From the NCBI RefSeq assembly GCF_004010195.1, contig NC_057719.1, forward strand, positions 37,451,777 through 37,490,373: a stretch of DNA of 38,597 bases, written 5' to 3'. The notes under the pieces are model-generated. The model saw only the letters and a program-made list of their open reading frames with translations. It was not told the origin of the DNA and did no database searches. Positions 8,577 through 35,946 of the stretch are shown here, piece by piece (the first letter of the stretch is position 1; each line of letters starts with the position of its first letter). Position numbers and translations under genes: made by a program. This stretch comes from Chiloscyllium plagiosum (taxonomy: Eukaryota).

Positions 8577-8754
8577 AGTGTGGTGCTGGAAGAGCACAGC
8601 TGGTCAGGCAGCATCTGAGGATCAGGAGAATTGACATTTCAGGCATAAGCCCTTCATCATTCCTAATCCTCGGATGCTGCCTGACCTGCTGTTCTTTTCC
8701 AGCACCACATTCTTCGACTCGTGATCTCCAGCATCTGCAGTCCTCACTTTCTCC
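8577..8754 (+). mobile_element. Penelope-like family A fold-back insert with decayed hammerhead
   Basis: Inverted arm 8577-8658 (minus strand TGATGAAGGGCTTATGCCTGAAATGTC) is joined to a direct arm ending TCTCCAGCATCTGCAGTCCTCACTTTCTCC. Confidence 0.85.
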
Positions 8755-9010
8755 TATCCTCCTTTCCATTAGGTTGCATTCTCTACAAAGTTCACCTTAA
8801 TCAAAATACCACTGCTCATTTCCTGTCCTCTGCTAGTTATTATTTGTCTACTACAATTAAATTTGAACCAACTCTCTCCCAGAGTGTTAAGCTCTTCATC
8901 AAAGCCTTTCACAGCTTTGGTCATCACAGGCACTTCAATCTCCCAATCTTCAGTACATCTCCCGTTCCTTTCCTTTAACATGGCAGCAAAGCTATCCACC
9001 TGGCACCACT

Positions 9011-9367
9011 TAGAGTCATAGAGATGTACAGCAGAGAAACAAACCCTTTGGTCCAACTCGTCCATACGGACCAGATATCCCAACACATTCTAGTCCCACC
9101 TGCCAGCACCCGGCTCATATCCTCCAAACCCTTCCTACTCATTTACTCATCCAGATGCCTTTTAAATGTTGGAATTGTACTAGCCTCCACAACTTCCTCT
9201 GGCAGCCCATTCCATGCATGCACCACCCTCTGCATCAAAAGGTTGCCCCTTAGGTCTTTTCTTTATCTTTCCCCTCTCACCCTAAACCTATGCCCTCCAG
9301 TTCTGGAACTCCCCACCCCAGAGAAAAGACCTTGTATATTTCCCCTATCCATGCCTCTCATGATTCT
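9011..9367 (-). mobile_element. CR1 LINE 3' end
   Basis: TAGAGTCATAGAG tail and reverse of the 'QRVVHAWNGLP' region; similar to 31426-31772 and 33315-33768. Confidence 0.85.
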
Positions 9368-9887
9368 TGAAAGTCACATCATTAAACTAAATCACTTCTT
9401 TTCCTTAGTATGAAAGCATCCCCAAGATCCATTTTTATGATCGTTCAGATCTTAATTCTAATTATTTATTATCTTCATGGAATGTGAATGTTGCTGAAGA
9501 ACACGGGGATCATTTTTATGTTAAATGGTAAAGTCAAGTCCTCAGCTGCTGGTGGAGTACCTGCTGAAAGAAATGAGGCATTGGAAGTGTTAAAGTTTGC
9601 ATTCTTATAGTAAATCTATCTGAAGGCAGCTCAGCATTTAAAAGACCATGGACACAGCAAAAAATGATTAACTCCATGTCAATCAGTATTTTCAGCCAAC
9701 GCTCACACTCACAAAATCCAGGGCACCTGCTTGCATATTGCTTTCAGGCACTATATTTACTTTGATATGAAAAACAGTGCAGCTAAATAGTGCAAGGAGG
9801 TACATTGTAACTTAACTCCATGTGATAAATCTCTGCAACTGTAAAGCATGTGGCCCAGTGATTCTTACAGGTTAATAACACTGTATA

Positions 9888-10012
9888 GAAGAAGGACTCA
9901 TGCCTGGAACGTCGATTCTCCTGCTCCTTGGATGCTGCCTGACCTGCTGCGCTTTTCCAGCAACACATTTTCAGCTCTGATCTCCAGCATCTGCAGTCCT
10001 CACTTTCTCCCC
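9888..10012 (+). mobile_element. Penelope-like family A solo insert with 15-bp TSD
   Basis: TAATAACACTGTATA is duplicated at 9873-9887 and 10013-10027; the insert starts GAAGAAGGACTCATGCCTGGAACGTCGA (decayed hammerhead core) and ends with the family A tail. Confidence 0.9.
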
Positions 10013-11504
10013 TAATAACACTGTATACTCTACAGACGGCTACAGTCATGAATGCTGGGAAAGGAATTGTCCGACCAAGTCAAAGTTTCTTGAATTATTC
10101 CATCTCAAAGCACAACATAGTCATTTGCCTCTTTTGTTTTTGTGCAGGTTGTAGTTTTCTGATGCTTCAAAACTAAATATTCTGACCAAAACGCCTAAGT
10201 TTCTTTTCCTCACAATTCCATGGCAACATAAAGGTAGCAGAACAGCTATCTGGATTCTCAGTGTTTCATTTCAGCTATTGTAAGACAGAGAAAACTTAAT
10301 TAGTAAAACTCTCAGTGTCTTCTACATAAAAGGTCAAAAGTAAAACACGGCACTGAGCAACTACTCTCTAACATTGATCTCTGTTGTATATACTGTAATT
10401 GTAGCACATCAGCACCCCCACCCACCGATCTAAGAGTAAAGTAGTTTCAATTCACTGGAGCTGCTCATCTCTTCCTTCATGTGTGAAAGGGATTGCCAGA
10501 ACAACTAAATATAAATGTGCTCCTGCTATTTAAACACAGGCCCAGAACTGGAAACTAATGCTTATTTATGCCACATGACAAATATATCAGTTTATGAAGC
10601 ATGGAAATACTTTTTCATTCAATTGTATATTTAAGAATTAATAACTCAGTTACTCTTTTCATTCCCAATCATTGACATTGTAATATTTTATCTTTTTTCA
10701 CCTTCTGGGATATATAATTGCCTTGAAACTACAATGCCTAACATTTGTGGTGTAGATCAAACATAGCCTGAAGAGAACAGAAATATCTCATAAATTTCAA
10801 TTCTGTGTAGCAGTCAGCCATAAGCAACAAGCCTACAGAGTGCTCCTTTTCTGTCATTATTAACAATCACTGTCAATGCGAGTTCTTCCAGACTTGTATG
10901 AACACACCAATCTTTGCCATAATGGTAACATGTTCACAAGTCATAGACCAGATGTTCTTCCTGCTCAGCTGGAGATCAGAAGGGTGCACTTCCTCCCATA
11001 CCCTGCGCCGCCCACTCAATCCCACCCATTCCCCATACCTGGTGATTGTCAGCCTGACATTAAGAAATTAATAACCCAGGCATCTTTGTCTTTTTAGGGC
11101 CAGCATGCTATCAAATTGAGTGTACATCATGTGAAGAATATTTGAAAAACCATATAATTTCCAGATAGACTAATCATATGGTTATCTTTACTTGCCTCAT
11201 TTTTCTGTTCAACTTGGGGTTTGAGTTGATTCTAATTACAGACTACCAACAACATTCTAACAGTGTTAAAATCAGGTCTGTTTGCACTGCCCCCAGCGTA
11301 AATGTATTATTTCACAGCAACACAAACCCCACACATGCTTTACCTCCTTCAGCTTCCCTTTCTCATATAAACAACATGATTTTATGACTCAAACTCAGCG
11401 TCACTCAATCACTATTTTATGCCTCACTTTCTCTTCACAGTTTCTCTCTGGAGCCCCACAGTGCTTTAACAATCAAAAACAAATGGGTCCCAGTAAAACA
11501 CATG

Positions 11505-11662
11505 ATAAAAAGACATTTGGACAGGTACATGGATTGGAAAGGTTTAGAGGGATGTGGGTCAAATGTTGGCAAATGGGGCCAGTTCAGTTTAGGAAACCTG
11601 ATCGGCATGGACCAGGTGGGTCAAAGGTTCTGTCTCTGTGCTATATACCTCTATGACTCTAG
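11505..11662 (+). mobile_element. CR1 LINE 3' end fragment
   Basis: KRHLDRYMDWKGLEG peptide, then GGCATGGACCAGGTGGGTCAAAGG...CTCTATGACTCTA tail. Confidence 0.8.
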
Positions 11663-12139
11663 GATACCCATACAGATGGAAAGAAAGATTTGGGATGTAC
11701 GGCACAACGCAGTATGTAGTTCTTTGTTAACACTCATTTCTAAAAGATCTGTTGAAAATTCACCTGTTTTCTCACAAGAGCTTTGTTTTATAAAATTACA
11801 TTACTTCGTTTAAATCAATGCAAAGTGAAATAAGTGAATAATTCAGTAAATGTATTGGCACACTCACAAAACCAACCTACATGGTTACGTTACTGATACC
11901 ACCAATAGTGATGGTGGTTGCAGTTAACTGGCTGAAACAGGTACTGCGGAGTAGTTCAATGGTTTCAAAATTGGATCTCTGGAGTCTCTGTTTCTCCAGT
12001 CCTGACAGGCCACCCACCCACTGCAATTTTCACAACAGCCATTTCAGCACCTGTCTTGATCAGAGCATGCACAATATTTCACTGGCATGAGAGGAGAAAG
12101 ATTCTAGAAAGGTAAGCTTTACAGTTGGTTTTGAGAGCT

Positions 12140-12345
12140 CACAAATGGCGGTGAGAGAATGGAATTCACTACAACAAGGAGGGGAGTAATAAATGCATTT
12201 AAGGGGTAGATAGAAAAGCATTTGAGAATTACAACTATAGAATTAGACATGGGAAGGAAGGTCAACTTCAGCATAAACATTGGTGTGGAGTGGTGAGGTG
12301 GGATAGCCAGTCTCTTTGCTGCATATCCTGTGTATTACAATGTAA
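12140..12345 (+). mobile_element. Highly degraded CR1 3' fragment
   Basis: GGTGAGAGAATGGAATTCACTAC...ATGCATTTAAGGGG...AGCATAAACATTGG resembles the CR1 'WNSL..AFKG' region and 3' UTR. Confidence 0.5.
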
Positions 12346-13272
12346 TTTGGTTACCACTGCAAACCAGATTCTATCCTTTGATATTGTCTATTGACACCTC
12401 AAACTCACCCCCAGCAAATCCTTTCTACCTTTGAGTTGACCAATACCCCCATGGCCAAAGATTGGCAAGCTGCTTTGGAATGACCATCCCGAAGTTCACC
12501 AGCTGAATTCAAATGAAGCCCATGCATCAAAATCACAGCAACATCCTCTTTGTTGAAATGGACAGTCACCCTCTGGACCCTCCTGTTCAGGAGCCCAAAA
12601 GAGACAGAATCTACTACACAGGGCCCTGCAGTATGAAAGAAAGTTTGATCTACTGCAACATAACAATGAAAAACAAGGAATTAAGGAAACTGTAATCAAA
12701 TAAAATGTTGCATAATACATTGTACAACGGCAACTTGAATTCATATAGCACCTTGAATGTAGTAAAATGTCCCAAAGAGTACAAGGGAAACTCCGATCAC
12801 TTAAATCTTCCTTGAATACAGATATTATGTTGTCTGTGAAACTCGTGTCCAAGTCAAACACATAATTTGAATATACAAAGCAACTTTTCTTCAGATCAGA
12901 ACCCGCCTTGACTTAGACAAAATTCACACTGATTTCACTGCATGGCACTTCTACCTCAGATCGTATGAGCTTACAACAAACACAATTTAATCAGATGCAC
13001 CAACTACAAATCTGTAAGGGTTACAGAACCATCATCTGATGCAACTAAAATGATTTTAAGTTATGGGAAAGCCTAACAACTTTCCAGGTTTGAACACAAA
13101 AGCGATTTCAAGCTGAAAGTGGCCTAGCTGAGAGAACAGGCGAGTCCGTGTTGCCTGCTTTCCAGGAGCTGCCATACCTTTAAACACGGCACAGGGCTGG
13201 ATCGAAATTCCCCTCTGATTAGATCTGTCTCTACACAGGCCAACAGCAAAAAGCTCAGATGGTTGTATTTAC

Positions 13273-13339
13273 CAGTGCAGAACTGCAGCAGCGAGGAGGT
13301 GTCGTAGAGGCTGCTGTAGCCTGAGAACCCGTCCTCCAT
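13273..13339 (-). CDS. EML1: EML1 (echinoderm microtubule-associated protein-like 1) first coding exon, 67 nt
   Basis: Translates MEDGFSGYSSLYDTSSLLQFCT, near-identical to the recalled human EML1 N-terminus MEDGFSSYSSLYDTSSLLQFCN; phase-1 donor G|GTAAAT at 13273/13272 fits the following Asp codon. Exon 2 was not found in the window. Confidence 0.93.
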
Positions 13340-14100
13340 CCTCAAGCCGAACCCTCCCGTCTCTCCGTTACTTAGTTTGCCCGCCACAGGAGCTGTCCCC
13401 CATTCACGATCCAGTTTTCCGGGGGCTCCCTGCCAGTGTCAGTTACCATAGCAACCCATTCAGTTTCTCTTTCCCCGTTTTCCACAGCCTCTCAAATATA
13501 ACAAAATGTTTCCCTCTTGAGGCTTTGCACACTCAAAGCCACAGCCCAGAGGCTTCCAGAGGGAGCGGACCTGCAGCAAACCAGAGAGAGAGAGAGAAAA
13601 CGCTGGGATGTTTCAGACAGCGAGGGAGAGGGACTGCCAAACTGTGTCTCTAGTTCCTGCCTGTCGGTAATCTTAGACCAGTAAAAACAGGACGAGCATC
13701 CTTTCAAAATACAGCCAGGAAAGCCCGGGCCAATAAGCTTGCAGCAGCCGAGCAGCTGATGGTGGAGGGCTGTGGAAACTCGGCGTGAAAATCGAACCGA
13801 GCCCAGGACTCGGGAGCAACTTGCGGGAGGGAATCTACAGGAATCTCCCTGCCTCAACATACGATCAAGCAGCCATTTCCATCAGCTCATATCTGTCCCA
13901 GCAGCAGGCACTCTTAACCAGCTGATCGCAAACAGGTTTGGAAAAGCTAGCCCAAGCGAAGACGAAGGCGTTATGTTGCTTCATCCACCATTGCTTGGGA
14001 TCGTTTTGGGCAATGCGGTGCTAGTTTGTAATTTTTGTACAAACTCGATTCAGCGTTAGCGGACTGTAAACCGAACACCTCCCGAAAAGTGCAGGACTTT
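13340..14100 (-). promoter_or_regulatory. CpG-rich promoter/5' UTR region of EML1
   Basis: Many retained CpGs relative to the CpG-depleted flanks; repeat-free; CCAAT at 13730-13734; (GA)n at about 13583-13596; lies directly upstream of the EML1 ATG. TSS unknown. Confidence 0.7.
13442..13455. promoter_or_regulatory. RFX X-box motif
   Basis: GTTACCATAGCAAC matches the X-box consensus GTNRCC-N0-3-RGYAAC, about 100 bp upstream of the EML1 ATG. Confidence 0.7.
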
Positions 14101-14764
14101 TATTCTAAAATGCTTCCTAAGTATTTCCATTCATTCAGCAGCAGGCCCTGCAATTTATTCGAAGACATTGCCTGGGGAATATTTGGGATTTGGCTTCTGT
14201 GATAGGATTTTTCTCAAGACATAAAAAACTTAATTAAGTTTAGTTGTAGCTTATAATTGTTAAAAGCAATGGAAGCTGCATTTCAGCTGATTTTTTTTTT
14301 CATTTTAATTCCCAAGTCGATTCCTGCAAATTTGTCTCTAGCTTATTGCTTCTGTATGTACACTTAAACATAAACTCAATAGGCAAAACAGCTCTAATAC
14401 TTGGCAAGGCCACAAGAGAGGTAATGGTGGAGAGTAATTCCCTGGAGGGCCTGCCTGGAATAGCCAGTACATACGCCTCTGTTTTGTAATGTTAGCGTGC
14501 CCACAGCCCATGAATATCATTTTTAAAATGCTTCAGAAATAAAGTCTGCTGAACTAAAATCTAGCAAATCATTAAAATTAACTTTGCAGAATTTCCAGTG
14601 TCTTTTCTGAGACATTACGTGTAATTCTACCAGATGAATGAATGTAGTAAGATGCAATAATGGTTGAAATACAATCCCCAGAGCAGATGCAGAGTTTAAG
14701 AAGAAATTTGGTTTTGTTAGGAAGCCAATGCTTGGATAGTGTGGTTTTCTTTTAAATGGAATCA

Positions 14765-14870
14765 TGTTGAACTTGAAATGTTAACTCTGTTTCTGTCTCC
14801 ACAGATGCTGTCAGACCTGCTGAGTTTCTCCCAACACTTTGTTTTTATTTTAGAAGCTGCAGTACTTTGT
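14765..14870 (+). mobile_element. Old Penelope-like terminal-repeat fragment
   Basis: GAAATGTTAACTCTGTTTCTGTCTCCACAGATGCTGTCAGACCTGCTGAGTTTCTCC...CTGCAGTA shares the GATGCTG.C.GACCTGCTG block with family A. Confidence 0.6.
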
Positions 14871-15054
14871 ACATTACTTTGTGATGACACCTGTTTAATT
14901 AGATAGCCATGCAAGTAGGCCAAATATCAATGAAGGATAATGTTCACTGAAATAATTCAAAATATGAACAGATGATCCTGTGTCACAAAGCAGAACTATT
15001 GTGTACCAATACTGCAGAATCACATTAAAATCACGCTGCTTCTTTGGTACATGA

Positions 15055-15225
15055 AGAAATAAAGACTTGCATTTATAACGAATGTTTCACAGGAAGCCCC
15101 AAAGCTCTTTGCAGTTAATGAAGAACTTTTGAAATGTAATGTAATGTTGTAATGTAAGAACATTGCTTATGTGTGCGTTAGCACTGATCAACTTTCATTC
15201 TATTGTTAGTAGATAATTGGCCCCA
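15055..15225 (-). mobile_element. Deu-domain SINE 3' part, degraded
   Basis: GACTTGCATTTATA...CCCAAAGCTCTTTGCAGTTAATGAAGAACTTTTGAAATGTA...TGTTGTAATGTAAGAA is the reverse of the tail seen at 3890-3975. Confidence 0.6.
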
Positions 15226-15879
15226 AAGGTCTGCTCTCTAACAGTTTCACTTACTCTTTCAATACCCTGGCACTTTGAATACTTGCATCATTTCTAATTC
15301 CAAGCAGTTGATAAATTTTCCTTGACTACTCAAAGAGTTGCTGAGGAAATGATTCTTTTTCTCTAACTCACTCTGCACCTCCTCCAATTGTAACTCCTGA
15401 AATCAAATTAGCTCATCTAACATAGATGTAGGCTTGTTTGGAAAAAGTCACTGATTGGAAAAATAGATTCTAAAAACAAACAAACCTCTTTTTTGTCCCA
15501 GTTACTTTTCTGGCATTTGAATAATTATATGAATTATACTTGTATATTTGTTAGGGTTATGATAAAATAATATTTATGCAATTTTCCCATACATAATGAG
15601 TGGAAGGGCAGTTCCATCTCAAGCACTATAAAGCGAGAGGGAATAACGAAATAGATCAGAAAGAACAGAAGAGAAACAGAAAAGTCCTGATGGTCTGTTA
15701 ATAAAATACCACAGCATATTTGAAGTAACTATGCTGTAGAATATGCTACCAGCCCATGTGGATAGCTGCAGTAGATTCCCTCCCGCAATGACTGAGTCAT
15801 CCTTGTACGTTGTGATAGATCAAACATTGAGGAGTTGTCTATCTCATCACTGGACAAATAGCATTGTTGAATGCAATCA

Positions 15880-16145
15880 GGCAGATGCCAGTGCAGTTCA
15901 GGATGGAGCATTACATTACTGGGGGTATCATCTTCAAATAATATCTTTAACATGCATTGTCAAACAGACACAAAAACACCATGGCACCAGTCACACAGCG
16001 TGGAATTCACTTGCTATCTTGTCAATGTTTCTTTGATTCACCATCACCAATTACAGCTTAACTGGTCATTGTTTCATTTTTTGTTGGTTGAATGTTGCTG
16101 AATACAAATTGGAAGCTACATTTGACTTCATAACAACAGTGACTG
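15880..16145 (+). mobile_element. Deu-domain SINE, highly degraded
   Basis: CAGTGCAGT...AAAACACCATGGCAC...ACTGGTCATT...CAAATTGGAAGCTACATTTG...ATAACAACAGTGACT. Confidence 0.45.
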
Positions 16146-16329
16146 TTGTAACCTCAGATACCATCGCTGCTAGCATGTAGTGGTCTGATTTGGGTAACCC
16201 TATGCCCACAATCTTCCTTTCTCTATGATGGGTCTAGCACTTGGCTAAGTATCAGTGGTATGGGAGAGACCACAAGTGACTCTAAACAGAACCTGTGTTG
16301 GGCTGGTAATTTAGAGTTTGGGAAAAGGT

Positions 16330-16615
16330 TGGGGGGGGGGGGAGGAATTGTTGAAAAATTAGGGGTTTCCCATTTAAGACTGAGATATTTTTCTCTTGGG
16401 GATCAGGGGATTCTCTTCACCAGAGAGCATTGATTATATGGAAAGCTGAAGTTAGGCAGAATTTTAATCAACAGGGGAGTCGAGTGTTATGAGGGGTGGT
16501 GTAGGTAGAAAAATGGAAAAGGCCATAATCAGATCAACCATGATGTTATTGGATGGTTAATCAGGCTCAAAGGTCTGAAAAGCCTACTTCTGCTTCTATT
16601 TTTTTATGTTCTTAC
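16330..16615 (+). mobile_element. Degraded CR1 3' end
   Basis: CCATTTAAGACTGAGAT...GGCCATAATCAGATCAACCATGATG...CAGGCTCAAAGGTCTGAAAAGCCTACTTCTGCTTCTATT...TTATGTTCTTA. Confidence 0.65.
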
Positions 16616-17854
16616 ATAACAAAGTAGTTTATTGCATGATAGCAACAGTTCAGTTTACATTACTAATTAGCCATAATTACAAAGAACTCATGGGAGCAGT
16701 ACAGAATACACTTGCTCCCTTTGCCGACTTGTGCAGAACTCCTCTGTCTCCACCCAAAGATTGTGCGATGTCACCAGATTGGTGGAGCTCAGTATAACAA
16801 GAACATTAAGTCTTTCAGAACCATTACTTCATACACAATGACTACACTAGTAGCAATTCATTAGTCAAAAGCACTACATACATGTAAAATAAAGAAATAA
16901 TGTTGCAAGTGCAAGAACTGGAGTTCAAGAAAAATCAAACAATTTTAAATGCATTGCAGAAGTTGGATTTGGATTTCTAACATTACCAAGAGCTGAACTA
17001 TACCAAACCACTGAAAGTCTTCAGGTTTGACGCCTTTCTGTGCTGAATTAGCTGATCTCATGGAAAGCATAAGGGAGACTGTGATTGACATTACCATCCC
17101 TGCATTAGAAACTGACTGTTACACCCATCCCTATTCTATATCAATTTCTTATGGAAGTGTGTGGACATAGATTGACATAGATTGAGTCCAGGCTAACATT
17201 CAGATTTATTGCCCCATTAAATACAATGACCTGTTAGCAATCAAGTTCTTTCCATGCTTGAGAAAGGCAGTAGAAACGATGGCACATTCAATTATTCCTG
17301 GTATACAATTCAATGAAAAGATGGGTAACACTGAAAACATGACGTGTTGTCAGCAATTCCAGTGCAAGGATTACCCAAATTGCATTGCTAATGCAAGGAA
17401 CAAAAATGTTTTCCTTGATGTAATCTCATTGTTAGACCTAGAAAGCTATAGCTTCTATATTTTTGACTCATGGCCTGATTAGTTAGCTCACTGCAATGTT
17501 GTATAGTCAAGAGTACAATCTTTCATAAGCAGGATGCAAAAGCCAAAATTATTGATAGAAGGAAATCCAGTTTACTCTGCAGACGTACACCAGTATATCC
17601 TGCTGCTGACCCATGCCAATCTAATTTTACACAGCAGCGTTTATTTGTTGATGGATGGAATCATAACCTACACACACCTACTTTTTATGGCTTTCTTTAA
17701 ACTTAGTATTTGTTTGTTTTACCCAAGTTGTTTTTTTTCCACTTTCTGAATAATGCACATTTATGCTCCCATCTCTTTCTCATTATTACTGAAATCCCAA
17801 CAAATATTAATTCCCTCCATGCCTCACAGATTATGCTACTGTAGGTCCCTTTTG

Positions 17855-17964
17855 TGGCAGCGCTTCTAAAGCTTGAAATTTCAAATAAGCTTGTTGGGCT
17901 ATAACCTGGTGTTCTGTGACTGCCGACTTTGTCCTTCCTAGTCCAATACTGGTGCCCCAACATC
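17855..17964 (+). mobile_element. Penelope-like family B fragment, degraded
   Basis: GCAGCGCTTCTAAAGCTTG...AAATAAGCTTGTTGGGCTATAACCTGGTG...AGTCCAATACTGG aligns with 35597-35700. Confidence 0.7.
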
Positions 17965-21666: not shown

Positions 21667-21860
21667 GATTTGGAGATGCCATTGGACTGGGGTGTACAAA
21701 ATTAAAAATCACACAACATCAGGTTATAGTCTAACAGGTTTAATTGGAAGTACTAGCTTTCAGAGCACCGCTCCTTCATCAGGTGGTTTCAACCGCTCCG
21801 AAAGCCAGTGCTTCCAATTAAACCTGTTGGACTATAACCTGGTGTTTTGTGATTTTTAAC
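21667..21860 (-). mobile_element. Penelope-like family B fold-back insert with 12-bp TSD and hammerhead motif
   Basis: ATTATGCTTCAG at 21655-21666 and 21861-21872; minus 21751-21785 reads CAC CTGATGA A GGAGC GGT GCTCT GAAAG CTA GTA; the inverted arm restarts at GCTCCGAAAG (21795). Confidence 0.9.
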
Positions 21861-22219
21861 ATTATGCTTCAGAGCTACCTAATTGGCTGGAAAGCATATC
21901 CTGAAATTTTGGAAAGGTGCCATATAAAATCAAGGGCTGAGTGTTTTTTTTTTGACTAAGTCTGAATTGATTCAAGCTTTTTTGGAGGTTTGTAGCAGTG
22001 TGGATTAGCAAGTTCGTGCACCCACATCTTATCAATTGTATTGCATCAAATACTTACCTCACCCCAGGACATCTCTCACATCTGATTCCTGCCACATCAT
22101 CCGACATGCCATTTATAGAACTACCCCACCACCAGCGGATATCATGGAATTCATCAACATTCCAAACAACCTGTAAAAGCCCACTCTGCACCCAGCCAAG
22201 ACCTGTAAGTCTAGAGCAG

Positions 22220-23360
22220 CTTTGCATAGTAAACTAATGGAAAAAGTGAAGTCACATGGCATGCAGTATGTTCTAGATAGGTGGATAAAGAACTGGCTGA
22301 GCAACAGGAGACAGAGAGTAGTAGTTGAAGAGAGTTTCTTGAAATGGAGAAAGGTGACCAGTGGTGTCCCACAGAGATCAGTGCTGGGGCCTCTGTTGTT
22401 TGTGATATACATAAATGATCTGGAAGAGGGCAGTGCTGGTCTGATCAGTAAGTTTGCAGATGACATAAAGATTGGTGGAGTAGCAGAAAGCATAGGAGAC
22501 TGTCAAAGAATATAGGAGGAGATAGATAGACTGAAGAGTGTGGCAGATGGAGTTCCATCCAGGCAAATGTGAGGTGTTGCATTTTGGGAAGACTAATTCC
22601 AGAGCAAACTATACTGTAAACGGAAGAGCCTTGGGAAAAGTTAATGAGCAGAGAGATCTGGGAGTTCAGGTCCATTATACCCTGAAGGTGGCTGCATAGG
22701 TGGATAAAGTGGTCAAGAAGGCATATGGTATGCTTGGCTTGATCGGACGGGGTATTGAGTATAAGAGCTGGCAAATCATGTTAACATTGTACGAGACTTT
22801 GGTTCAGCTGCATTTAGAATACTGTGTACCATTCTGGTCACCACATTATCAAAAGGATGTGGGCACTTTGGAGAGGGTGCAGAGAAGGTTAACGAGGATG
22901 TTGCCTGGTATGGAAGGTGCTAGCTATGAAGAGAGGTTGAGTAGGTTAGGATTGTTTTCATCAGAAAAAAGGAGATTGAGGGGGTGTCTGATTGAGGTCT
23001 ACAAAATCATGAAGGATATAGACAGGGTGGATAGTGGTAAACTTTTTCCCAGGGTGAGGGACTCAATAACGAGAGGTCACACATTCAAGGTGAGAAATGA
23101 AAAGCTCAAGGATGATACATGCAGAAAGTACTTTACACAGAGGGTGGAAGGTGCCTGGAATGCGTTGCCAGCAGAGGTATTAGAGACAGGCATGGTAGAT
23201 TCATTTAAGGTATGTCTGGACAGATGCAAGAATAGGTGGGGAGCAGAGGGATATAGATTCTTAGGAATTGGGCAATAGATTTCGACAGTGGATTTGGATC
23301 AGCTCAGGCACGGAGGGCCAAAGGGCCTGTTCCTGGGCTGTAAATTTTCTTTGTTCTTTG
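22220..23360 (+). mobile_element. CR1 LINE, 5'-truncated (RT domain to 3' UTR)
   Basis: [83 protein letters not shown] tail; frameshifted. Confidence 0.95.
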
Positions 23361-23409
23361 CATTGTTCCTGACATTTTGCCCCATCTGAAGCAAACCACG
23401 TCTGAGGCA

Positions 23410-26765: not shown

Positions 26766-27510
26766 AAGAGTCATGCTGCAGTTATAGAAACCCCTTGACT
26801 TCACTTAGAGCACTGCAAACAGATCTGGGCACCAGACTTCAGAAGGATATCAGAGGAGCCGAGAAAAATAAAATCGACATTTCAGGCAAAAGCTCTTCAT
26901 CAGGAAACATCGATTTTTCCTGTTCCTCAAATGCTGCCTGACCTACTGTGCTTTTCCAGCACAACTCTAATCTTGACTCTAACCTTCAGCATCTGCAGTA
27001 CCCACTTCTGCCGTTCAGAAGGATATACTCACTTAAGAAAGAATACAATGCAGATTTACAATAACAATACCTGAGCTTCAGGAATTATGTTAAGAGGAGA
27101 TATTGTACATACTAGGCCTGTTTTCACCTGAACATAGAAAGTTAAAGGGTGATCTGATTGAAATCTTCAAAATATTCACAGTAAATAACACGGTAGATAA
27201 AGATAAATTAATTCCACTGGTTCAAGGTTCTATAATTAGGGAACATGGTCTGAAAATTAGGGTCAGACCATTCAGGAGAGATGTTGGGAAGCACACAAAG
27301 GGCTGTAGAAGTTTGAAACTCTCTTTCAGAAATGATTGATGCTAGAGCAGTTGTTAATTATAAATCTGAGATAAGTAGATTTTTGTTAAGCAAAATATAT
27401 TAAGAGATATGAGTCAAAGGCTCATAAATGTAGTTAGCCCACTGATCAGTCATGATCTCATTGAGTGGTGGAACAGACTTGAAGGGCTGAATGAACCTCC
27501 TCTGCTTTCC
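26766..27510 (+). mobile_element. CR1 LINE 3' region, interrupted by a PLE insert
   Basis: LGLFSPEHRKLKGDLIEIFKI peptide and CR1 3' UTR (GATCAGTCATGATCTCATTGAGTGGTGGAACAGACTTGAAGGGCTGAATG). Confidence 0.85.
26851..27013 (+). mobile_element. Penelope-like family A fold-back insert with 13-bp TSD
   Basis: TTCAGAAGGATAT at 26838-26850 and 27014-27026; inverted part (minus CCTGATGAAGAGCTTTTGCCTGAAATGTCGAT) is fused directly to GAAACATCGAT of the direct arm. Confidence 0.88.
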
Positions 27511-28026
27511 TCAATTCTTGTTAAAATGCGTGGACTCTTGTCCTCTCCACGTTTAAATTTATCAATTATCGAATCACCAACATCCATTCCCCCACATTGT
27601 GCTACTTTCTATCTTAAATACTGTTACATCCATTATGATCTCTGCTTCTATATCTCCTGGATAAGTACAATACCAAGTAATTACTCAATATTTCCACATT
27701 TTGTGGTCATTAGCTGTGAGTTTATCACGTGCATTCTATAGTTACTATATCCCTATCCTGAAGCTTATTAACCTGGCTGCAGAATATTTCACCAATTATC
27801 CAGTGGAGCCAGGTAGCAAGTTGATGCCAAATGTTCCAGTGAGTGATCGAGAGAAACATTGACCTAGATCTTCCAGTTGCTGGATCATCAGAGACGGGAT
27901 GTGTGATCCAAGATAAGCATCTGTACCCTGTGGGAGTTCCAATGCACAAACTCCATGGGAATTGCTTGGGAAGCTTAAACTTCCAACTGAGAATGTCACA
28001 GCTCCCCAGGCTCTTCCAAAAAGGTC

Positions 28027-28233
28027 AAGATCAGAGTGGTGCTGGAAAAGCACAGCAGGTCAGGTAGCATCTAAGGAGCAAGAAAATCGACGTTTCGGGC
28101 AAAAGCCTGATGAAGGGTTTTTGCCCGAAACTTCGATTTTCCTGCTCCTCAGATGCTGCCTGACCTGCTGTGCTTTTCCAGCATCACTCTAATCTAGACT
28201 CTAATCTCCAGCATCTGCAGTACTCCCTTCTGC
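28027..28233 (+). mobile_element. Penelope-like family A palindromic insert with 14-bp TSD
   Basis: CTTCCAAAAAGGTC at 28013-28026 and 28234-28247; about 80-bp arms (28028-28107 and 28116-28195); core CTGATGA(28107-28113)..GCCC GAAA CTTC; 38-nt tail. Confidence 0.92.
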
Positions 28234-28859
28234 CTTCCAAAAAGGTCTCCGACTCTGATTCAGAAACTTTGCACAGTTCTGATTTACTTACCTGGATAGT
28301 TACACAGGAAACGTGAGTAACTAAATGATCAATCCTTTCTTCTTGCCTATCCACTTGAGGCCATGACCAGGCTTCCCTCCATACCCCCACTGATCTGACC
28401 CGACTACCCACCTCGCCATTCTGGCACCCCACTTTACCCAATCACTTACCTCCCTTATCCTGCCCACTTAGATTCCTGCACATTCTCCTATCCAGCCATT
28501 CACTCACACCCTGAAAAGCTATGTTTCAGGCATTGGAGAAAGAATACTTTACAGATTACAGCAGCTAATACTGTAAAAAGCTGTTTTGCTAAAACAGTCA
28601 AAAAATCAGAACTTGAGGTCTGTGTTGGCTTAAGGGAAATGCCATATAAGTTTCAGCAGCTGGGTCATGGATGGGTGGATCTGAAATGAAACACCAATAT
28701 AGCTGTGGCAATACTTTCCCACAAGTTAATCATCATTGTAATTCAAAAGTAATTCACTGTGTGCAGGACTTTGAGATATATTTGATTACATAATTAAGGA
28801 AAGACATTGCAAGTTTTTTTTCAGAATGAAATTTAGTTATGAGACACAGTAAATTGCTT

Positions 28860-29535
28860 GGATGGGAACAGGTTTGCACATAAGGACAAAGTGACTGAAC
28901 AAAAACAATGGTAAATGAACTTCAGTGTGGGAAAGAATGAAATGTGGCTCTAGGAATATTTTCTTGATATTAAAAGAGGAGTTTCTATGGAGAAGGGAAA
29001 GAATTTAGGTGTCCATTTTACAAAAGTCACTAAAATCTAGTGCACAAAATGAAAAAGTAATTATAAACATTAAATAATATCTTGACATTTACTTCAGAGA
29101 GTTGGAAATCAAGCATTTTAAAAAGTGTGCATCACAGCCCATGGAGTATTATAGTTCAGTTTTGGACTCTATACCTCAGGGGAGAATACAGGACAAATTC
29201 ATTGGATTTCTTAAGTAGTGCTTAAGGGTTTAGTCACAAGGATATATACATAAAAATGCCTTGTATTCTCTTGAAGATTGAGGGATAATCCAACTCATAT
29301 TTAATATTTTAAGCAACTTGATCAGGTGGATACAGAAAAATCATTTCTACTAATGGGTACATCTAGAATAATTAGAATCAGGCAATTAAAGCACATTTTT
29401 CCAAATTTAGAACTTGCTCCAACAGAATGACTTTTGCTTGGTTATTTTGGGAACGAATATTGAGTGATGTGGAACAAGATGTGTTGAGATATAGATCAGC
29501 TAGGATTAGCTAACTGTCAAAACAAGCTCAACAGC
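28860..29535 (+). mobile_element. Highly degraded CR1 3' region
   Basis: ATGGTAAATGAACTTCAGTGTGGGAAAG, GAATTTAGGTGTCC...AAGTCACTAAAATCTAG and GTTCAGTTTTGG motifs colinear with the other CR1 copies. Confidence 0.6.
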
Positions 29536-30252
29536 AATGTATTTTGTTTACTCATGGGATATGAACAGTGCTAGCTGACCACTATTTATTGCCTAATCCT
29601 AGTTGCCGTTGAGAAGGTGGTGGTGAGCTGTCTTCTTGAACTATTGCAGTCCATGTGCTGAAAGATGACCGACAATGACCTTAGGGAGGGAATTCCATGA
29701 TTTTGACCCAGCCACAGTGACAGAATGGTGACATATTTCTAAGTTAGGATGGCGAATGGCTTGGAGGAGAACTTGCATGTGATGATGTTCCCAAACGTCT
29801 ACTGTCCTTGTCCTTCCAGATAAAAGTGGTTGTAGATTTGGAAAGTGCTGTTTAAGGACCTTTGGTGAATTTCTGCTGTGTGTCTTGTATATAGTACACA
29901 CAGCTGCTACTGAGCATTGGTGGTGGAGGGAGTGAATGTTTATAGATGTGGTGCCAATCCAGCTGTCTGCTTTGTCTTGGATGGTATCAAGCTTCTTGAG
30001 TGTTGTTGGAGATACACCCATTCAGGCAAGTGGGGAATATTCCATTACACTCCTTATTTGTGCCTTGTAGATGGTGGATAGGCTTTGGACAGTCAGGCGA
30101 TGAGTAACTCCCTACAGTATTCCCAACCTGTGATCAGTTCCGGTTGTCACTGTATTTACATGGTGAGTCCATTTGAGTTTCTGGTCAATGGTAACCCCCA
30201 GGATGTTGATAATGGAGTATGCCGTGATGGTAACACCTTCAAAGGGAGGTAA

Positions 30253-31370
30253 TTTGATCTGAAAATGTGTTGCTGGAAAAGCACAGCAGGTCAGGCAGCA
30301 TCCAAGGAGTAGGAGAATCGATGTTTCGGGCATAAGCCCTTCTTCAGGAATGAGGAAAGTGTGTCCAGCAGGCTAAGATAAAAGGTAGGGAGGAGGGACT
30401 TGGGGGAGGGGCGTTGGAAATGCGATAGGTGGAAGGAGGACAAGGTGAGGGTGATAGGTCAGAGTGGGGGGGGGGGCGGAGAGGTCAGGAAGANNNNNNN
30501 NNNNNNNNNNNNNNNNNNNNNNNNNNNNNNNNNNNNNNNNNNNNNNNNNNNNNNNNNNNNNNNNNNNNNNNNNNNNNNNNNNNNNNNNNNNNNNNNNNNN
30601 NNNNNNNNNNNNNNNNNNNNNNNNNNNNNNNNNNNNNNNNNNNNNNNNNNNNNNNNNNNNNNNNNNNNNNNNNNNNNNNNNNNNNNNNNNNNNNNNNNNN
30701 NNNNNNNNNNNNNNNNNNNNNNNNNNNNNNNNNNNNNNNNNNNNNNNNNNNNNNNNNNNNNNNNNNNNNNNNNNNNNNNNNNNNNNNNNNNNNNNNNNNN
30801 NNNNNNNNNNNNNNNNNNNNNNNNNNNNNNNNNNNNNNNNNNNNNNNNNNNNNNNNNNGTGGGGTGTGTGGACCTGACGAGGGAGTCACGGAGGGAGTGG
30901 TCTTTTCGGAACGCTGATAGGGGAGGGGAGGGAAATATATTCCTGCTGGTGGGGTCCATTTGGAGGTGGCGGAAATGATGGCGGATGATACGCTGTATAT
31001 GGAGGTTGGTGGGGTGATAGGTTTCCTCATTTCCCCTCCCCCCACCTTGTCTCAGTCAAATCCCTCGAACTCAGCACCACCTTCCTAACCTGCAATCTTC
31101 TTCCTGACCTCTCCGCCCCCACCCCCACTCCGGCCTATCACCCTCACCTTGACCTCCTTCCACCTATCGCATTTCCAACGCCCCTCCCACAAGTCCCTCC
31201 TCCCTACCTTTTATCTTAGCCTGCTGGACACACTTTCCTCTTTCCTGAAGAAGGGCTCATGCCCAAAATGTCGATTCTCCTGCTCCTGGATGTTGCCTGA
31301 CCTGCTGCGCTTTTCCAGCTACACATTTTCAGCTCTGATCTCCAGCATCTGCAGTCCTCACTTTCTCCTC
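30253..31370. mobile_element. Penelope-like retroelement family A, inverted configuration with ORF remnant (contains assembly gap)
   Basis: Minus 30859-31022 encodes TYHPTNLHIQRIIRHHFRHLQMDPTSRNIFPSPPLSAFRKDHSLRDSLVRS (PLE RT-to-GIY-YIG linker); 30259-30493 is the reverse complement of about 31098-31332; hammerhead motifs at 30318-30349(-) and about 31243-31274(+); GAGGTAA flanks both sides. Confidence 0.9.
30494..30858. other. Assembly gap (365 N)
   Basis: Run of N. Confidence 1.
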
Positions 31371-31425
31371 GAGGTAACTAAGATCATCTCTTACTGGAGA
31401 TGGTTATTGCCTTGCATTTGTGTGC

Positions 31426-31772
31426 TTTATAAAATCATGAGGGGCACGGGTAGCGTGAATAGCCAAGGTATTTTTCCTAGGGTGGGAAGTCGAAAACCAG
31501 AGGGCATAGGTTTAAGGTGAGAGGGGAAGGATTTAAAAAGGATGTGAAGGGTAACATTTTCACACAGAGGGTGGTGTCTTTCTGGAATGAGCTGCCAGAG
31601 GATGTGATGGAGGTGGGTAAAATTACAACTTTTAAAGGGAACTGGATGGGTATAGGAAGGGTTTAGAGGGATATGGGCCAAATGCTGGCAAGGTCCCATT
31701 TGGGATGTTTATCCAGCGCAGATGAATTTGACTAAAGGGTCTGTTTCCATGCTTTTTGACTCTATGATTCTA
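31426..31772 (+). mobile_element. CR1 LINE 3' end
   Basis: YKIMRG..FTQRVVSFWNELPE peptide and GACTCTATGATTCTA tail. Confidence 0.88.
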
Positions 31773-31871
31773 AATATTATTTGCTACTTGTCAGCCCAAG
31801 CTTGGATATTGTCCAGATCTTGTTGCATTTGAACATGGATTACTTCATTATCAGAGGAGTTGCAGATGGTT

Positions 31872-32187
31872 TTAGATGAGATTACTTACAGTGTGGAAAC
31901 AGGCCCTCCGGCCCAACAAGTCCACACCGACCCTCCGAAGAACAAGCCACCCAGACCCATTCCCCTAAATTTACCCCTTCACCTAACACTACGGTCAATT
32001 TAACATGGCCAATTCACCTAACCTGCACATTTTTGGGCTGTGGGAGGAAACTGGAGCACCCGGAGGAAACCCACGCAGACACCGGGAAAATGTGCAAACT
32101 CCACACAGACAGTTGCCCGAGGCGGGAATTGAACCTGGGTCTCTGGCACTGTGAGGCAGCAGTGCTAACCACTGTGCCACTGTGCTG
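31872..32187 (-). mobile_element. HE1-type tRNA-derived V-SINE
   Basis: Minus strand: GTGGCACAGTGGTTAGCACTGCTGCCTCACAG (A box), GGTTCAATTCCCGCC (B box), V-domain TGTGTGGAGTTTGCACATTTTCCC..TGCGTGGGTTTCCTCCGGGTGCTCC and a CR1-like tail. Confidence 0.9.
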
Positions 32188-32191
32188 TAGC

Positions 32192-32305
32192 TACCTGAGG
32201 AAGGAGCAGCGCTCTGAAAGCTAGTGCTTCTAAATAAACCTGTTGGATTATAACCTGTTGTTGTGAGATTTTTAATTTTCTCCACTCCACTCCAATACCG
32301 ACCCC
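32192..32305 (+). mobile_element. Penelope-like family B solo insert with intact-core hammerhead motif
   Basis: TAC CTGAGGA A GGAGC AGC GCTCT GAAAG CTA GTG (32192-32226), followed by AATAAACCTGTTGGATTATAACCTG. Confidence 0.85.
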
Positions 32306-33238
32306 ATCACATTATACCTTCTTGCTAAGCCTCCTTCCAGTGTTAATGCTACTTGAATTACTGCATGGGATAGTTCACAAATTCTCACCTGACTTGGTTT
32401 TAAAATATGGAAGGCTACATTTCCTCTGCATTTGCACTCAGACCTGACATAATCTGATTAGAAATCAATGACATGGTTTGGTGATGTGAGATTACAAAAA
32501 AAATGAAAGAAACAGTATAATTGAGTAATCAAAGAGTAACTACAAAAGAATCTGAAGGGAATTGTTCTATGACCATTGGCAGAAGTGAAGCAAGTCCATT
32601 CGAGTAAACTTGAATTATATTCCCAGATTCACAAAGTATTTTACCATACAGCCAATGACTTTTTTCTAATGTGAAGAATGTGTCAGATTTATCAAAAAAT
32701 ATAGTCACTTACTCATAGTAAAGCCTTACACAATTTAAATAAATGAATGTTGAGATAAATGTCTCTGTCTGTAATAGTATAGCTAGGTGGAACCTAGCTT
32801 GCCTAATTTCAATAGGAGCCTGGAGATGAATGGGTATTAATACCATTGCAAACACAGGGAAGTTGCACAGATGTTTATTTAATGTCATGGAGGTAAAAAT
32901 TAAACATCAGCATCTACTAGTTGGTAGTACCATGTCAGCCACAAAGAATTTGACTTGTGACATATGGTCATTTCACTTCTGTGATTGATTGTAACTATCC
33001 TTATCTGGGATTGAGATGATAGAACTAAAGAGGCCACAGGAAAGAGCAGAGTCAAAGCTGTGTTCATGGATAGCTTATGTAGAGTGAGTGGTGAAGTGAA
33101 ACAGCAGGGAGAGGATAAGGTGAGCTCAAATGGATCATCCTGTAATGAAAAATCACTCAGAGCAGAGGCAGAGAAAGACCAGTATTTGTATCATGTCTTT
33201 CACAACCACTGGCCAACTCAAAGTGTTTTGTCACCATA

Positions 33239-33310
33239 CTAGGTAAGATCTTCAGTGAGCCTCACTGAAGATGTTACCTAGTTATAGCGACGAAACGTCT
33301 GAAAACCCAC
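33239..33310 (+). mobile_element. Penelope-like family C fold-back fragment with hammerhead motif
   Basis: 21-bp inverted arms 33239-33259 and 33261-33281 (1 mismatch); TCA CTGAAGA T GTTAC..GCGAC GAAAC GTC TGA at 33262-33302. Confidence 0.75.
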
Positions 33311-33314
33311 ATCC

Positions 33315-33768
33315 ACAAGGATGCTGCCAAGGTTGGAAGGTTTGAACTATAGGGAGAGACTGAACAGGCTGGGGCTGTTTTCCCTGGAGCATCGGAGCCT
33401 GAGGGGTGACCTTATAGAGGTTTATAAAATCATTAGGGGCATGGACAGAGTCAGCAAGGTCTTTTTCCCGGGGTGGGGGAGTCCAAAACCAGAGGGAATA
33501 GGTTTAGGGAAAAGAGTTAAAAGGGACCTAAGGGGTAACTTTTTCATGCAGACGATGGTGCGTGTATGGAATGAGCTGCCAGACAGTGTGGAGGTTGGTA
33601 CAATTACAACATTTATAAGATATCTGAATGGGTATATGAATAGGAAAGGTTTAGAGGGATTTGGGCCAAATGCTGGCAAAAAGGACTAGATTAATTTAGG
33701 ATATCTGGTCGGCATGGATGAGTTAGACTGAAAGGTCTGTTTCTGTGCTATACATCTCTCTGACTTTA
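33315..33768 (+). mobile_element. CR1 LINE 3' end
   Basis: TRMLPRLEGLNYRERLNRLGLFSLEHRSLRGDLIEVYKI..VWNELP peptide and CR1 3' UTR. Confidence 0.92.
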
Positions 33769-33791
33769 AGGCTGTTATTGTCCTAGAAAAT

Positions 33792-34141
33792 GGTGGTACA
33801 GTAGCTCAGTGGTTAGCACTGCTGCCTCACGGTGCCAGGAACCCAGGTCTGATTCCAGCCTCAGGAGACTGTGTGGAGTTTTCACATTCTCCCCATGTTG
33901 CGTGAGTTTCCTCCAGGTGATTAGTTTCTTCCTATGTACAATGGATGCACAGGTTAGGTGGATTGGCCAAGCAAAATTGCTGGTAGTGTCCAGGGATGTG
34001 TAGGCTAGGTGAATTAGCCATGGGAAATGCGGGGTTACAGCAATGGGGTGGGTCAAGGTGAGATGCTCTTTTGAGGGTCGGTATGCACTTGATGGGCCAG
34101 GTAGTGTCTTTCTGCACTGTAGGGATTTTATGATTCTATGA
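33792..34141 (+). mobile_element. HE1-type tRNA-derived V-SINE
   Basis: A box TAGCTCAGTGG (33802-33812), degenerate B box, V-domain TGTGTGGAGTTTTCACATTCTCCCCATG, tail CTGTAGGGATTTTATGATTCTATGA. Confidence 0.88.
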
Positions 34142-35030
34142 AAATATAACATGACAAACATCAGGTGAGCACTGGTTTGGGCTTAAGTGTCAGGCATATC
34201 CCCTGCCCAAGCCCATCGTGGTAAAATAGTAACATTTCTTAGTCAAACTTATACACAGTGAAATGCTACAATGTTAGAGGTCAGCATATTGTGCGAGGAA
34301 AGGTAAAACTATATACACAAAAAATCTACAGATCTGATACAACATCACAGTATTAACAGAGCAATGACTTTTTTGTGACTTAACTTTAACTTCATTTCTG
34401 CACAGTATATCCTGTCAAAGTGAAAATCAAGGTGTTATCTTGCTTTTCTTGACAAGTTAAAGATTACAGATAAAAGTGTACTCAATGGAGGAACAGAGAA
34501 AAGACTGCCACTGATCATTAAACATCTTAACTGTCATCACTCCTGCTGCATTCAATTTATTGCTGTATTCTTACCTTAAGACAAGAAATTAAAATGGAGA
34601 ATTCACTGTTTGGATTTTGAGAACCAATGCTGATGGCATTCTCCAATCTAAAATAACTGATCATTAACTCGGCAGACACCAAGAACAAGACACTACAAAG
34701 TTGAGTCTACTGTCAGGTTTGTTAAAAATGCCTCTTATGGAAAGTCAGTGCACATTTCAGTGACTGTGCTGACAAGCCTAAATAAGAAATCTTGAGGTGG
34801 AAGCAAACACATCTGGCAGTACAAAATGACCCCTTCTGTTTTAAGTGTTCTGACTAAGTGTTGTGACAATAGTTCAGGCATCACCACAGTGAAATGAGAT
34901 GGCCATGTGTGATCACAGCTTGTACATACTTGAATAATTAAAATTTGGAGATGCCGGTGTTGGACTGGGGTGTACAAAGTTAAAAATCACACAGCATCAG
35001 GTTATAGTCCAACAGGTTTAATTGGAAGCA

Positions 35031-35065
35031 CACTAGCTTTCGGAGCGACGCTCCTTCATCAGGTG
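35031..35065 (-). ncRNA. Minimal type I hammerhead ribozyme motif (family B, intact)
   Basis: CAC CUGAUGA A GGAGC GUC GCUCC GAAA G C U A GUG: complete core, perfect 5-bp stem II, 3-bp stem I, stem III reduced to palindromic AGCU. Activity not shown. Confidence 0.75.
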
Positions 35066-35291
35066 GTAGTGGAGGGCTCAATCCTAACACACAGAATTTA
35101 TAGCAAAAATTTACAGTGTGATGTAACTGAAATTATACATTGAAAAATTGATTGTCTGTTAAGCCTTTCATCTGTTAGAATACAGTGATAGTTTCATTTC
35201 TTTCATGTGTAAATCACAAAACCCTTTTTTTAAAGTTGCATTCTCGGGTTAGCTGTTAACAATGATGATAGCTAAACAATATGTTAAAGGT

Positions 35292-35490
35292 AAAAAAGGT
35301 AAAAACAATGACTGCAGATGCTGGAAACCAGATTCTGGATCAGTGTTGCTGGAAGAGCACAGCAATTCAGGCAGCATCCGAGGACAGGCAAAATCGACGT
35401 TTCGGGCAAAGGCTTTTGCCCAAAACGTCGATTTTGCCTGTCCTCGGATGCTGCCTGAATTGCTGTGCTCTTCCAGCAACACTGATCCAG
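35292..35490 (-). mobile_element. Young Penelope-like family A near-perfect palindrome nested in the family B element
   Basis: 79-bp arms 35332-35410 and 35415-35493 with one mismatch; TSD AATATGTTAAAGGT at 35278-35291 and 35491-35504 (first 3 nt shared with the arm); 40-nt tail at 35292-35331. Confidence 0.93.
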
Positions 35491-35946
35491 AATATGTTAA
35501 AGGTGTTAGCCCCCTGTGTTCTCTGTCTATGACCTGATGTTTAGATTGATTCTAATCTAAAAAGTGAGATAACAGAGTTTTACATAAATTCACTAGCTCC
35601 GAAAGCTAGTGTCCTTCCAATTAAACCTGTTGGACTATAACCTGGTGCTGTGTGATTTTTAACTTTGTACACCCCAGTCCAACACCGGCATCTCCAAATC
35701 ACCTTAACAATGGTGATAGCTATTGTCTAGCTATTGTCCAGCTATCACCATTGTTAACAGCTAACCCGAGAATGCAACTTTTTAAAAAAAGGTTTTGTGA
35801 TTTACACATGAAAGATGTGAAACTATCACTGTATTCTAACAGATGAAAGGCTTAACAGACAATCAATTTTTCAATGTATAATTTCAGTTACATCACACTG
35901 AAAATTTTTGCTATAAATTCTGTGTTACGATTGAGCCCTCCACAAT

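Follow-up and report, generated by a model that had tools for sequence, protein, structure and literature searches.

Why do short inserts in a stretch of the Chiloscyllium plagiosum genome break off at a hammerhead ribozyme? The stretch (NC_057719.1, positions 37,451,777 to 37,490,373 of the forward strand; all 38,597 nt are referred to as the window) lies in a 3.56-Gb genome in which CR1/L2-type pieces are abundant. It carries three repeat families (A, B and C), each with a minimal type-I hammerhead, and its inserts are stubs of hammerhead-bearing Penelope-like elements (PLEs), present as single (solo) stubs or as fold-backs of two opposed arms. The initial annotation placed the breakpoints of independent inserts inside the hammerhead. 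It attributed them to reverse transcriptase (RT) stalling, switching template or self-priming at the ribozyme structure or its cleavage site, or to a short mobile RNA. The junctions and 5' ends that it named were all present in the sequence (35408/35413, 28106/28107, 26904/26906, 8659/8661, 21787/21794, 33256-33264 and 35591-35611). The account judged probable here is that the stubs are insertions of endonuclease-containing (EN+) PLEs, and that they pile up at one adenine per family, A(-4) in family A and A(-8) in family B, because the complementary DNA (cDNA) ran off the capped start of the element RNA.

Position and sequence of the 5' ends

Positions were numbered with C3 of CUGANGA as 0, which puts predicted cleavage after +27 in family A and +28 in family B. 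Copies were taken from 140 unselected 10-kb stretches (1.4 Mb), and 5' ends were mapped against a panel of long copies spanning the subfamilies. Arms were kept at >=85% identity (188 of 269 in A and 57 of 72 in B; 81 and 15 were dropped). Window arms were left out of these counts, and censored arms were not counted as events. In family A (n = 188), the per-base 5'-end hazard was 0.110 at -10 to -1, 0.027 at 0 to 7 and 0.010 at 8 to 27. Outside the peak it was 0.0065 at 24 to 32, 0.0045 at 36 to 70 and 0.0025 at -300 to -61. The peak at -10 to +4 stood 17.3-fold above the flanks in A (P ~ 1e-53) and 9.8-fold in B (n = 57, P ~ 1e-11), so the clustering exceeds chance. A smooth decay from the 3' end, which had been named as the contrary outcome, was not seen; in the control, 125 CR1-type 3'-end units from these stretches (59 censored), there were 0-0.0044 ends per base and no peak, whereas A and B had one. 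Among copies bounded by target-site duplications (TSDs), 51 of 88 fold-back arms and 18 of 29 solos ended at -10 to +4. As fold-backs and solos share the peak, it does not come from subfamily or upstream divergence.

Clustering at the motif was therefore upheld, but its position required correction. The mode is centred neither within the motif nor at the site of cleavage; it lies at a sharp edge upstream of the core, A(-4) in A and A(-8) in B, level with the 5' strand of stem I or further upstream. For family A it was -4/-3 and for family B -8 to -3, with a shoulder reaching into stem II. When query-selected loci were added (316 A arms), 23 ends fell at -4 and 28 at -3. The same arms gave minor counts of 7 at +38 and 11 at +46 to +48, possibly from older subfamilies whose similarity starts there. 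An apparent cluster of ends at the ATG was traced to query bias and discarded. Within paired arms, median ends were +2 (tailed) and -1.5 (tail-less; P = 0.22, 44 each), despite a 35-nt difference in length. As both kinds of arm halt at the same place, the end is set by position and not by cDNA length. Continuation upstream of the hammerhead was seen in family A for 33 of 122 ordinary arms and in family B for 21 of 42 arms.

The window itself agreed in part with the claim that most short inserts break at the motif. There, 17 of 23 arms ended at -10 to +20 and two at +33/+35. Four arms that speak against clustering at the hammerhead run far upstream and had been passed over (both arms of 30258-31369, 34943-35590 and 35700-36032).

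The base preceding the end was read from whole-genome pattern matches and counted by hand among the 100 matches listed per pattern, to which all base counts below refer; in the 1.4-Mb sample this count was too small and confounded by partner arms. Subfamily A1 ends at A(-4) (9,981 matches) were preceded by G56 A29 T15. Removal of read-through copies and of letters explainable by the partner arm left G34 A15 T8 (P = 3e-8 against 25%). Controls at neighbouring ends gave G17 T36 C47 at -3 (10,106 matches), G19 A48 C33 at -2 (3,507 matches) and G30 A27 C43 at -5 (4,588 matches), where about 18 of the G were supplied by the partner. G against A differed between -4 and -2 (P = 5e-6). For family B, ends at A(-8) (1,532 matches) gave G56 A14 T30, of which 24 of the A and T were read-through variants; without these the counts were G56 A9 T11. 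Both A(-4) and A(-8) are pyrimidine-purine steps, and transcription starts favour such a step. An untemplated G at the 5' ends of full-length L1 and SVA copies has been ascribed to the cap in the part of the source available (PMC3287187). Since an extra G is tied to the edge, as at those L1 and SVA ends, the edge together with its G is read by analogy as the likely copied, capped start of the element RNA.

The elements, their fold-backs and their RNA

Judged from its translated sequence, family A is an EN+ PLE with a Neptune-type linker. Relatives of the ORF piece in the window carry RT, GIY-YIG and a Neptune-type cysteine linker. In one of them (L158), the RT domain scored above cut-off (RVT_1, E = 4e-9), and the C-terminal GIY-YIG domain reached 22.4 bits against a cut-off of 22.6 (PF01541, E = 1.6e-4), with the motif visible in the alignment. 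Two cysteines lie between the GIY-YIG motifs, and a CX4CxxC linker joins RT and EN in L158 and L150, within the CX2-5CxxC form that defines the Neptune clade in the available part of PMC8557442. The family A ATG is at about +165. For family B, a GIY-YIG-like ORF end was recognised by translation only, about 700 nt upstream of its hammerhead. A genome search with window positions 35505-35590 as query returned no match and hence no B ORF start. Apparently long open frames at candidate loci were assembly gaps or repeats. No intact element was recovered, and full-length copies are gapped in this assembly.

The copies have the structure of PLEs, with a pseudo-LTR (pLTR; LTR, long terminal repeat) at both ends, an inverted copy, a tail on one side and a TSD of 10-18 bp (mostly 12-16 bp, mode 14-15). 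Two 3' ends occur, near +90 in tail-less copies and near +125 in tailed ones; in family B these are +86 and +119 to +122. The hammerheads show CUGANGA, stem II, GAA, a palindromic tetramer, a UH site and a short stem I. Rfam gave no hammerhead match at E <= 1, the sub-threshold matches being of hairpin-type miRNA and one snoRNA. Free-energy folds recovered stem II of family A and not the complete hammerhead fold. A further observation concerns mini-elements (L170-L199, for example L180, L183, L185, L190, L197 and L199) that lack nearly the whole ORF; a 5' repeat and a short ORF start are joined to a second hammerhead unit starting at -3 to -14. At the tailed end of family A (+110 to +130; window 31352-31369; L170-L249), some 35 nt ahead of the ATG, there is also a motif resembling a branch point, pyrimidine tract and AG, and another acceptor-like motif lies at -18 to -26. 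No spliced family A copies at the acceptor-like motif were found among the 58 matches listed, 5 of which were repeats.

Among fold-backs with a good TSD, 54 of 55 paired one tailed arm with one tail-less arm. In 44 pairs compared at the junction, the tail-less arm reached more than 5 nt further 5' in 18 and the tailed arm was longer in 9, with 17 ties; junctions were overlapping in 16, blunt in 6 and filled in 22. Identical junctions at different loci, a check that had been proposed, were found. A -1/+9 junction is common to subfamilies A1 (L134 and L137) and A2 (window 28107). Arm-to-arm identity had a median of 93.5%, against 86% to other copies. This measure does not tell one RNA from two, the partner being among the top three matches in 12 of 34 cases. 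Four apparent tail-less solos with an inverted tail-only piece at the 5' end (L035:2707, L089:6476, L130:1388 and L023:2481) are fold-backs with a very short second arm.

The 54 of 55 tail pairing, together with an anole PLE enzyme that extends both target strands, leads us to infer that each hairpin consists of two target-primed cDNAs, one per target strand, joined head to head. This enzyme (PAc, Poseidon, Anolis) cuts and extends both strands in vitro. Its tail is defined by two internal sites of RT initiation, shortly downstream of the hammerhead, whose cleavage is dispensable (PMC11167929, available part). The shark copies resemble PAc in the two start sites that define the tail, the use of both strands and the dispensable cleavage. 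They differ in that a multi-copy transcript was assumed for PAc, with neither start nor poly(A) site mapped in that part of the source, and in that the PAc ORF starts in stem II and the family A ATG lies at about +165. Neptune-clade EN+ PLEs are described, as far as the sources were available, with a pLTR, an inverted 5'-truncated copy and a one-sided tail of 30-40 bp (PMC8557442; PMC3846280), the one-sidedness being often seen in PLEs (PMC8557442). The shark elements match them in RT and GIY-YIG with CX4CxxC, a head-to-head arm, a tail at one end, a TSD and a minimal hammerhead in the repeat. Neither a fixed site of truncation or inversion nor an extra G appears in the same portions of these accounts, where inversion is put down to endonuclease resolution or antisense self-priming. 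The shark hammerheads also agree in core, stem II, palindromic tetramer and short stem I with the minimal type-I hammerheads of PLEs, which occur mostly as dispersed single motifs, some of them close together on opposite strands (PMC4209133, in part). Cleavage and circular templates are proposed there, whereas insertion ends here do not lie at the cleavage site. These sources, to the extent available, thus establish PLEs as such, along with their inverted pLTRs, tails on one side, TSDs and minimal hammerheads (PMC3846280; PMC8557442; PMC4209133).

For RNA, no data set was listed as carrying the window stretch, and run X20 gave no placed reads. One family B copy served as the reference for raw poly(A) reads from a related species (about 2% of run X19). 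Depth upstream was biased to the sense strand. Sense depth was 1,160-1,220 across the hammerhead, with no dip at the cleavage site, and dropped to about 290 after +60, reaching background beyond. A-runs were added at +54 (344 reads) and +60 (398 reads), over DNA that is not A-rich, giving a poly(A) site at about +57 to +60, upstream of both priming ends. An AATAAA or ATTAAA hexamer was present at +35 to +45 in 42 of 49 family B copies of the sample. In family B, the only family for which one was seen, the poly(A) site thus lies inside the repeat and upstream of the priming site, as in an LTR. A B mRNA that ends at +57 to +60 would be primable only at its 5' repeat; therefore the short cDNA would meet the cap and would have to jump to continue. 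In many copies a stub starting at -3 to -14 is joined behind an ORF-start piece, as a jump after run-off predicts. A rise in depth at the hammerhead edge was rejected as a start site, being seen on both strands in both placements.

Proposed mechanism and rival explanations

Transcription would start at the pyrimidine-purine site, and the hammerhead would simply be first in the transcript. Both target strands would be nicked, 12-16 bp apart; priming on one would use the tail end (about +125), and on its partner the tail-less site (about +90). Each cDNA would meet the cap after about 95-130 nt and copy it as one extra base. If no jump followed, the cDNA ends would be trimmed and joined head to head by 1-3 nt of microhomology or short fillers. 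Trimming and joining would give the hairpin and the shoulder into stem II, and a single cDNA would give a solo. The arms that continue upstream, about 30% (A) to 50% (B), would probably have jumped to the repeat at the RNA 3' end; we infer this jump. For B it would be required, given a poly(A) site upstream of both priming sites. The hammerhead probably marks the place of the break and is not its cause. The part of the earlier proposal in which breaks arise during retro-insertion and give hairpin stubs from a retroelement fits these results.

A wider reading is offered tentatively, as possible though somewhat less than probable. The pLTR would be a working U3-R-U5; with priming sites present only close to the 5' end of the capped, polyadenylated mRNA, every insertion would start as two target-primed strong-stop cDNAs. 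Stubs and hairpins would be frozen failed jumps, and full-length copies and the upstream repeat would be rebuilt only by a jump from the cap to the 3' repeat. LTR elements and retroviruses make minus-strand strong-stop DNA, followed by a first strand transfer, with the order U3-R-U5. Family B resembles them in the order of start, poly(A) site and priming site within the terminal repeat. It differs in priming from nicked target on both strands instead of from tRNA, in GIY-YIG instead of integrase, and in that failed intermediates are integrated. A tRNA primer and DDE integrase were not found; ends were target-primed, TSDs were 12-16 bp and the endonuclease was GIY-YIG, and a primer-binding site was not searched for separately. 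The transcript of Drosophila Penelope is reported to start inside the pLTR, upstream of hammerhead and tail (PMC2377424; PMC4209133, each in the part available). A literature search of incomplete coverage found no fixed truncation site, cap G or strong-stop model for PLEs. How PLEs rebuild their pLTR and give inverted, one-side-tailed insertions is a long-open question of mechanism, and cap and poly(A) evidence makes it directly testable. The stubs give base-level predictions of the RNA start, the poly(A) site and two priming sites. If the reading is true, an RT related to telomerase proceeds on target DNA by strong stop and jump, and the link between hammerhead and breakpoint is positional and not catalytic.

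Several results weigh against run-off at a capped start. Copies holding the ORF start and reaching +5 do not halt more often at the edge (17 of 25, against 89 of 122 ordinary 3' arms). A hard RNA end predicts that all should halt, unless jumps rebuild the upstream repeat. Upstream extension was seen in 0 of 12 such copies in a first set and, contrary to prediction, in 8 copies once a second set was included, 8 of the 25 in all. This speaks against a plain hard end; it is compatible with jumps into the 3' repeat, but also with longer transcripts or a stall that leaks. Long inverted copies are gapped by the assembly, so that short stubs are probably over-represented. Paired arms had correlated 5' end points (rho = 0.48, P = 0.001, 44 pairs), which suggests coupled trimming or synthesis. 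The B control at -6 was still G-rich among the matches listed (G29 A27 T44; G27 A18 without read-through), although the excess was weaker than at -8 (P = 0.003), and the partner arm could supply about 20 of the 56 G in the A1 list and about half of the G in the B list. Family A reads were placed on both strands without pile-ups or a poly(A) end, and a hexamer was present in only 13 of 152 A copies, at +75 to +89. Neither read placement (A or B) showed a pile-up of RNA 5' starts, and the RNA evidence comes from a single run of another species.

Arrest of RT while unwinding a folded or protein-bound hammerhead in a longer RNA, with a base added at the arrest, is an unlikely alternative. In all three families the edge roughly matches the 5' strand of stem I, the 5' and 3' hammerheads halt the similar shares of copies given above, and the anole hammerhead is protein-assisted (PMC11167929, in part). 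Arrest would be expected on the side that RT meets first (+32 to +19), yet the hazard there is near background, and in B the edge (-8) falls beyond stem I. The stall at the fold proposed earlier is possible, but it gives no reason for an edge that lies upstream of the fold and carries an extra G; among the matches listed, this G goes with A(-4) and is missing at -3 and -2. According to the part of PMC8557442 available, Naiad PLEs without hammerheads also make the same inverted, tailed insertions. Processing could instead set the template's 5' end, by host exonuclease trimming to the footprint of an element protein or by self-cleavage, and this we hold to be distinctly improbable. A footprint would likewise give an end fixed by position, and protein binds just downstream of the hammerhead in the anole element (PMC11167929, same part). 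A trimmed end would have no cap, however, and no reason for G over other bases. Self-cleavage, named earlier as a cause, predicts ends at +28/+29. At +24 to +32 there were only 9 ends among 188 A arms and none among 57 B arms, with no pile-up at +27/28; among the 316 arms there were 1-3 ends per base at that site, a minor share at most. The poly(A) reads crossing the B site without a dip point the same way.

That the short unit is itself mobile, as a retrozyme-like RNA or a MITE-like hairpin, with the pile-up reflecting founder amplification of a few junctions, is very unlikely. Stubs are numerous, at about 244 arms per Mb, certain junctions turn up many times among the genome-wide matches listed, and stubs beginning at the start site could be transcribed and re-copied. 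The same junction nevertheless occurs in different subfamilies, and fold-back lengths and junction types vary widely. The variable junctions, the asymmetric ends with one-sided tails (54 of 55) and the PLE-type TSDs of 10-18 bp (mostly 12-16 bp) do not fit a retrozyme, nor a MITE with its symmetric terminal inverted repeats, short fixed TSD and uniform family, and the ends are not at the cleavage site. Animal non-LTR retrozymes are similarly PLE-derived, non-coding and dispersed as many monomers with a type-I hammerhead. They are described, in the available part of the source, as tandem repeats with a hammerhead per unit (bioRxiv 10.64898/2026.07.22.740005), whereas the stubs here are dispersed, TSD-bounded and often inverted, and no hammerhead tandem array occurs in the window. 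Slightly less probable again is that one cDNA, or antisense RNA, folds back and primes itself, the hairpin then being cut at the tail boundary. Self-priming is the published reading of head-to-head palindromes (Arkhipova 2013; PMC3846280, in part). It agrees with the closeness of the two arms and with one micro fold-back at 35591-35611. It fails in the 18 of 44 pairs in which the tail-less arm exceeds the tailed one at the 5' end by more than 5 nt and so is not its copy. Nor can a tail-less arm supply a tail, and solos have the same edge. An origin of the pattern in assembly collapse, or in later deletion of palindrome spacers, is the most remote of these possibilities. The gaps in long inverted and full-length copies favour it. 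The non-palindromic, TSD-bounded solos with the same peak do not, deletion yields neither the extra G nor the tail rule, and joints between opposite strands at -3 and -2 (31242-31243) occur in contigs from independent runs.

Features of the window

Family A1 is represented by a long inverted insertion (30258..31369) with an assembly gap at 30494-30858 and a junction at about 31021, far upstream of the hammerhead. Its minus arm carries the PLE ORF piece (30861-31019). Its minimal type-I hammerhead is on the plus strand (31241..31276; core 31245, stem II, GAA, ACGT-type palindrome, UH), and the -4 position, the predicted capped start, is 31241 (A in the family, T in this copy). An A1 solo on the plus strand (9888..10012) has its 5' end at +2, a tail and an exact 15-bp TSD. 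Two fold-backs belong to A2. That at 26851..27013 joins a short minus arm to -3 (26906) and a plus arm from +20 (26904) by GAA microhomology, with an exact 13-bp TSD. That at 28027..28233 joins a tail-less minus arm to +9 and a tailed plus arm from -1 (28106/28107) by 2-nt microhomology, with a 14-bp TSD. A further family A fold-back (8579..8755) has a tail-less minus arm to +1 (8659), a tailed plus arm from +33 (8661) and a degenerate 17-bp TSD (3 mismatches), and a family A solo on the minus strand (36772..36865) has its 5' end at +5, a 12-nt filler and an 11-bp TSD. The A3 fold-back (35292..35490) pairs a tailed minus arm to +10 with a tail-less plus arm from +6 (35408/35413, in stem II), with a 14-bp TSD; this hairpin is nested in the 3' UTR of a family B copy.

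That copy is a complex family B insertion (34943..36032) with an exact 13-bp TSD. It begins with a long tailed minus arm, followed by the micro fold-back (35591-35611, start +16) and by plus units of +16 to +119 (35596-35699) and of about -250 to +82 (35700-36032). The second plus unit contains the B hammerhead on the plus strand (35942..35981; core 35950, AGCT palindrome, UA site), with A(-8), the predicted capped start, at 35942. The poly(A) hexamer (35990-35995) and the equivalent of the RNA poly(A) site (about +57 to +60) follow on the same strand within 35990..36010. The family B fold-back at 21667..21860 has a tailed minus arm to -5 (21787), a 6-nt filler, a tail-less plus arm from +15 (21794) and a 12-bp TSD. 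A family B solo on the plus strand (32193..32300) has its 5' end at -2, and no clear TSD was found for it. In the family C fold-back (33198..33310; junction 33256-33264), both arms end within -8 to -1.

Other repeats were also recognised in the window. CR1-like 3' ends near 11380-11665, 31400-31770 and 33340-33775 were used as control. CR1/L2-type RT fragments were found at 22177-23278 (RVT_1, E = 1e-7). Broken reading frames at 37080-37762 gave a weak GDSL/SGNH esterase match (E = 2e-6), and are presumably ORF1 of a CR1/L2-type element. A GC-richer region with overlapping open frames (13124-13880) is possibly a host exon or promoter. A SINE-like repeat is present in two inverted copies (31880-32190 and 33775-33900), and the B stub at 32193 lies at the edge of one of them.

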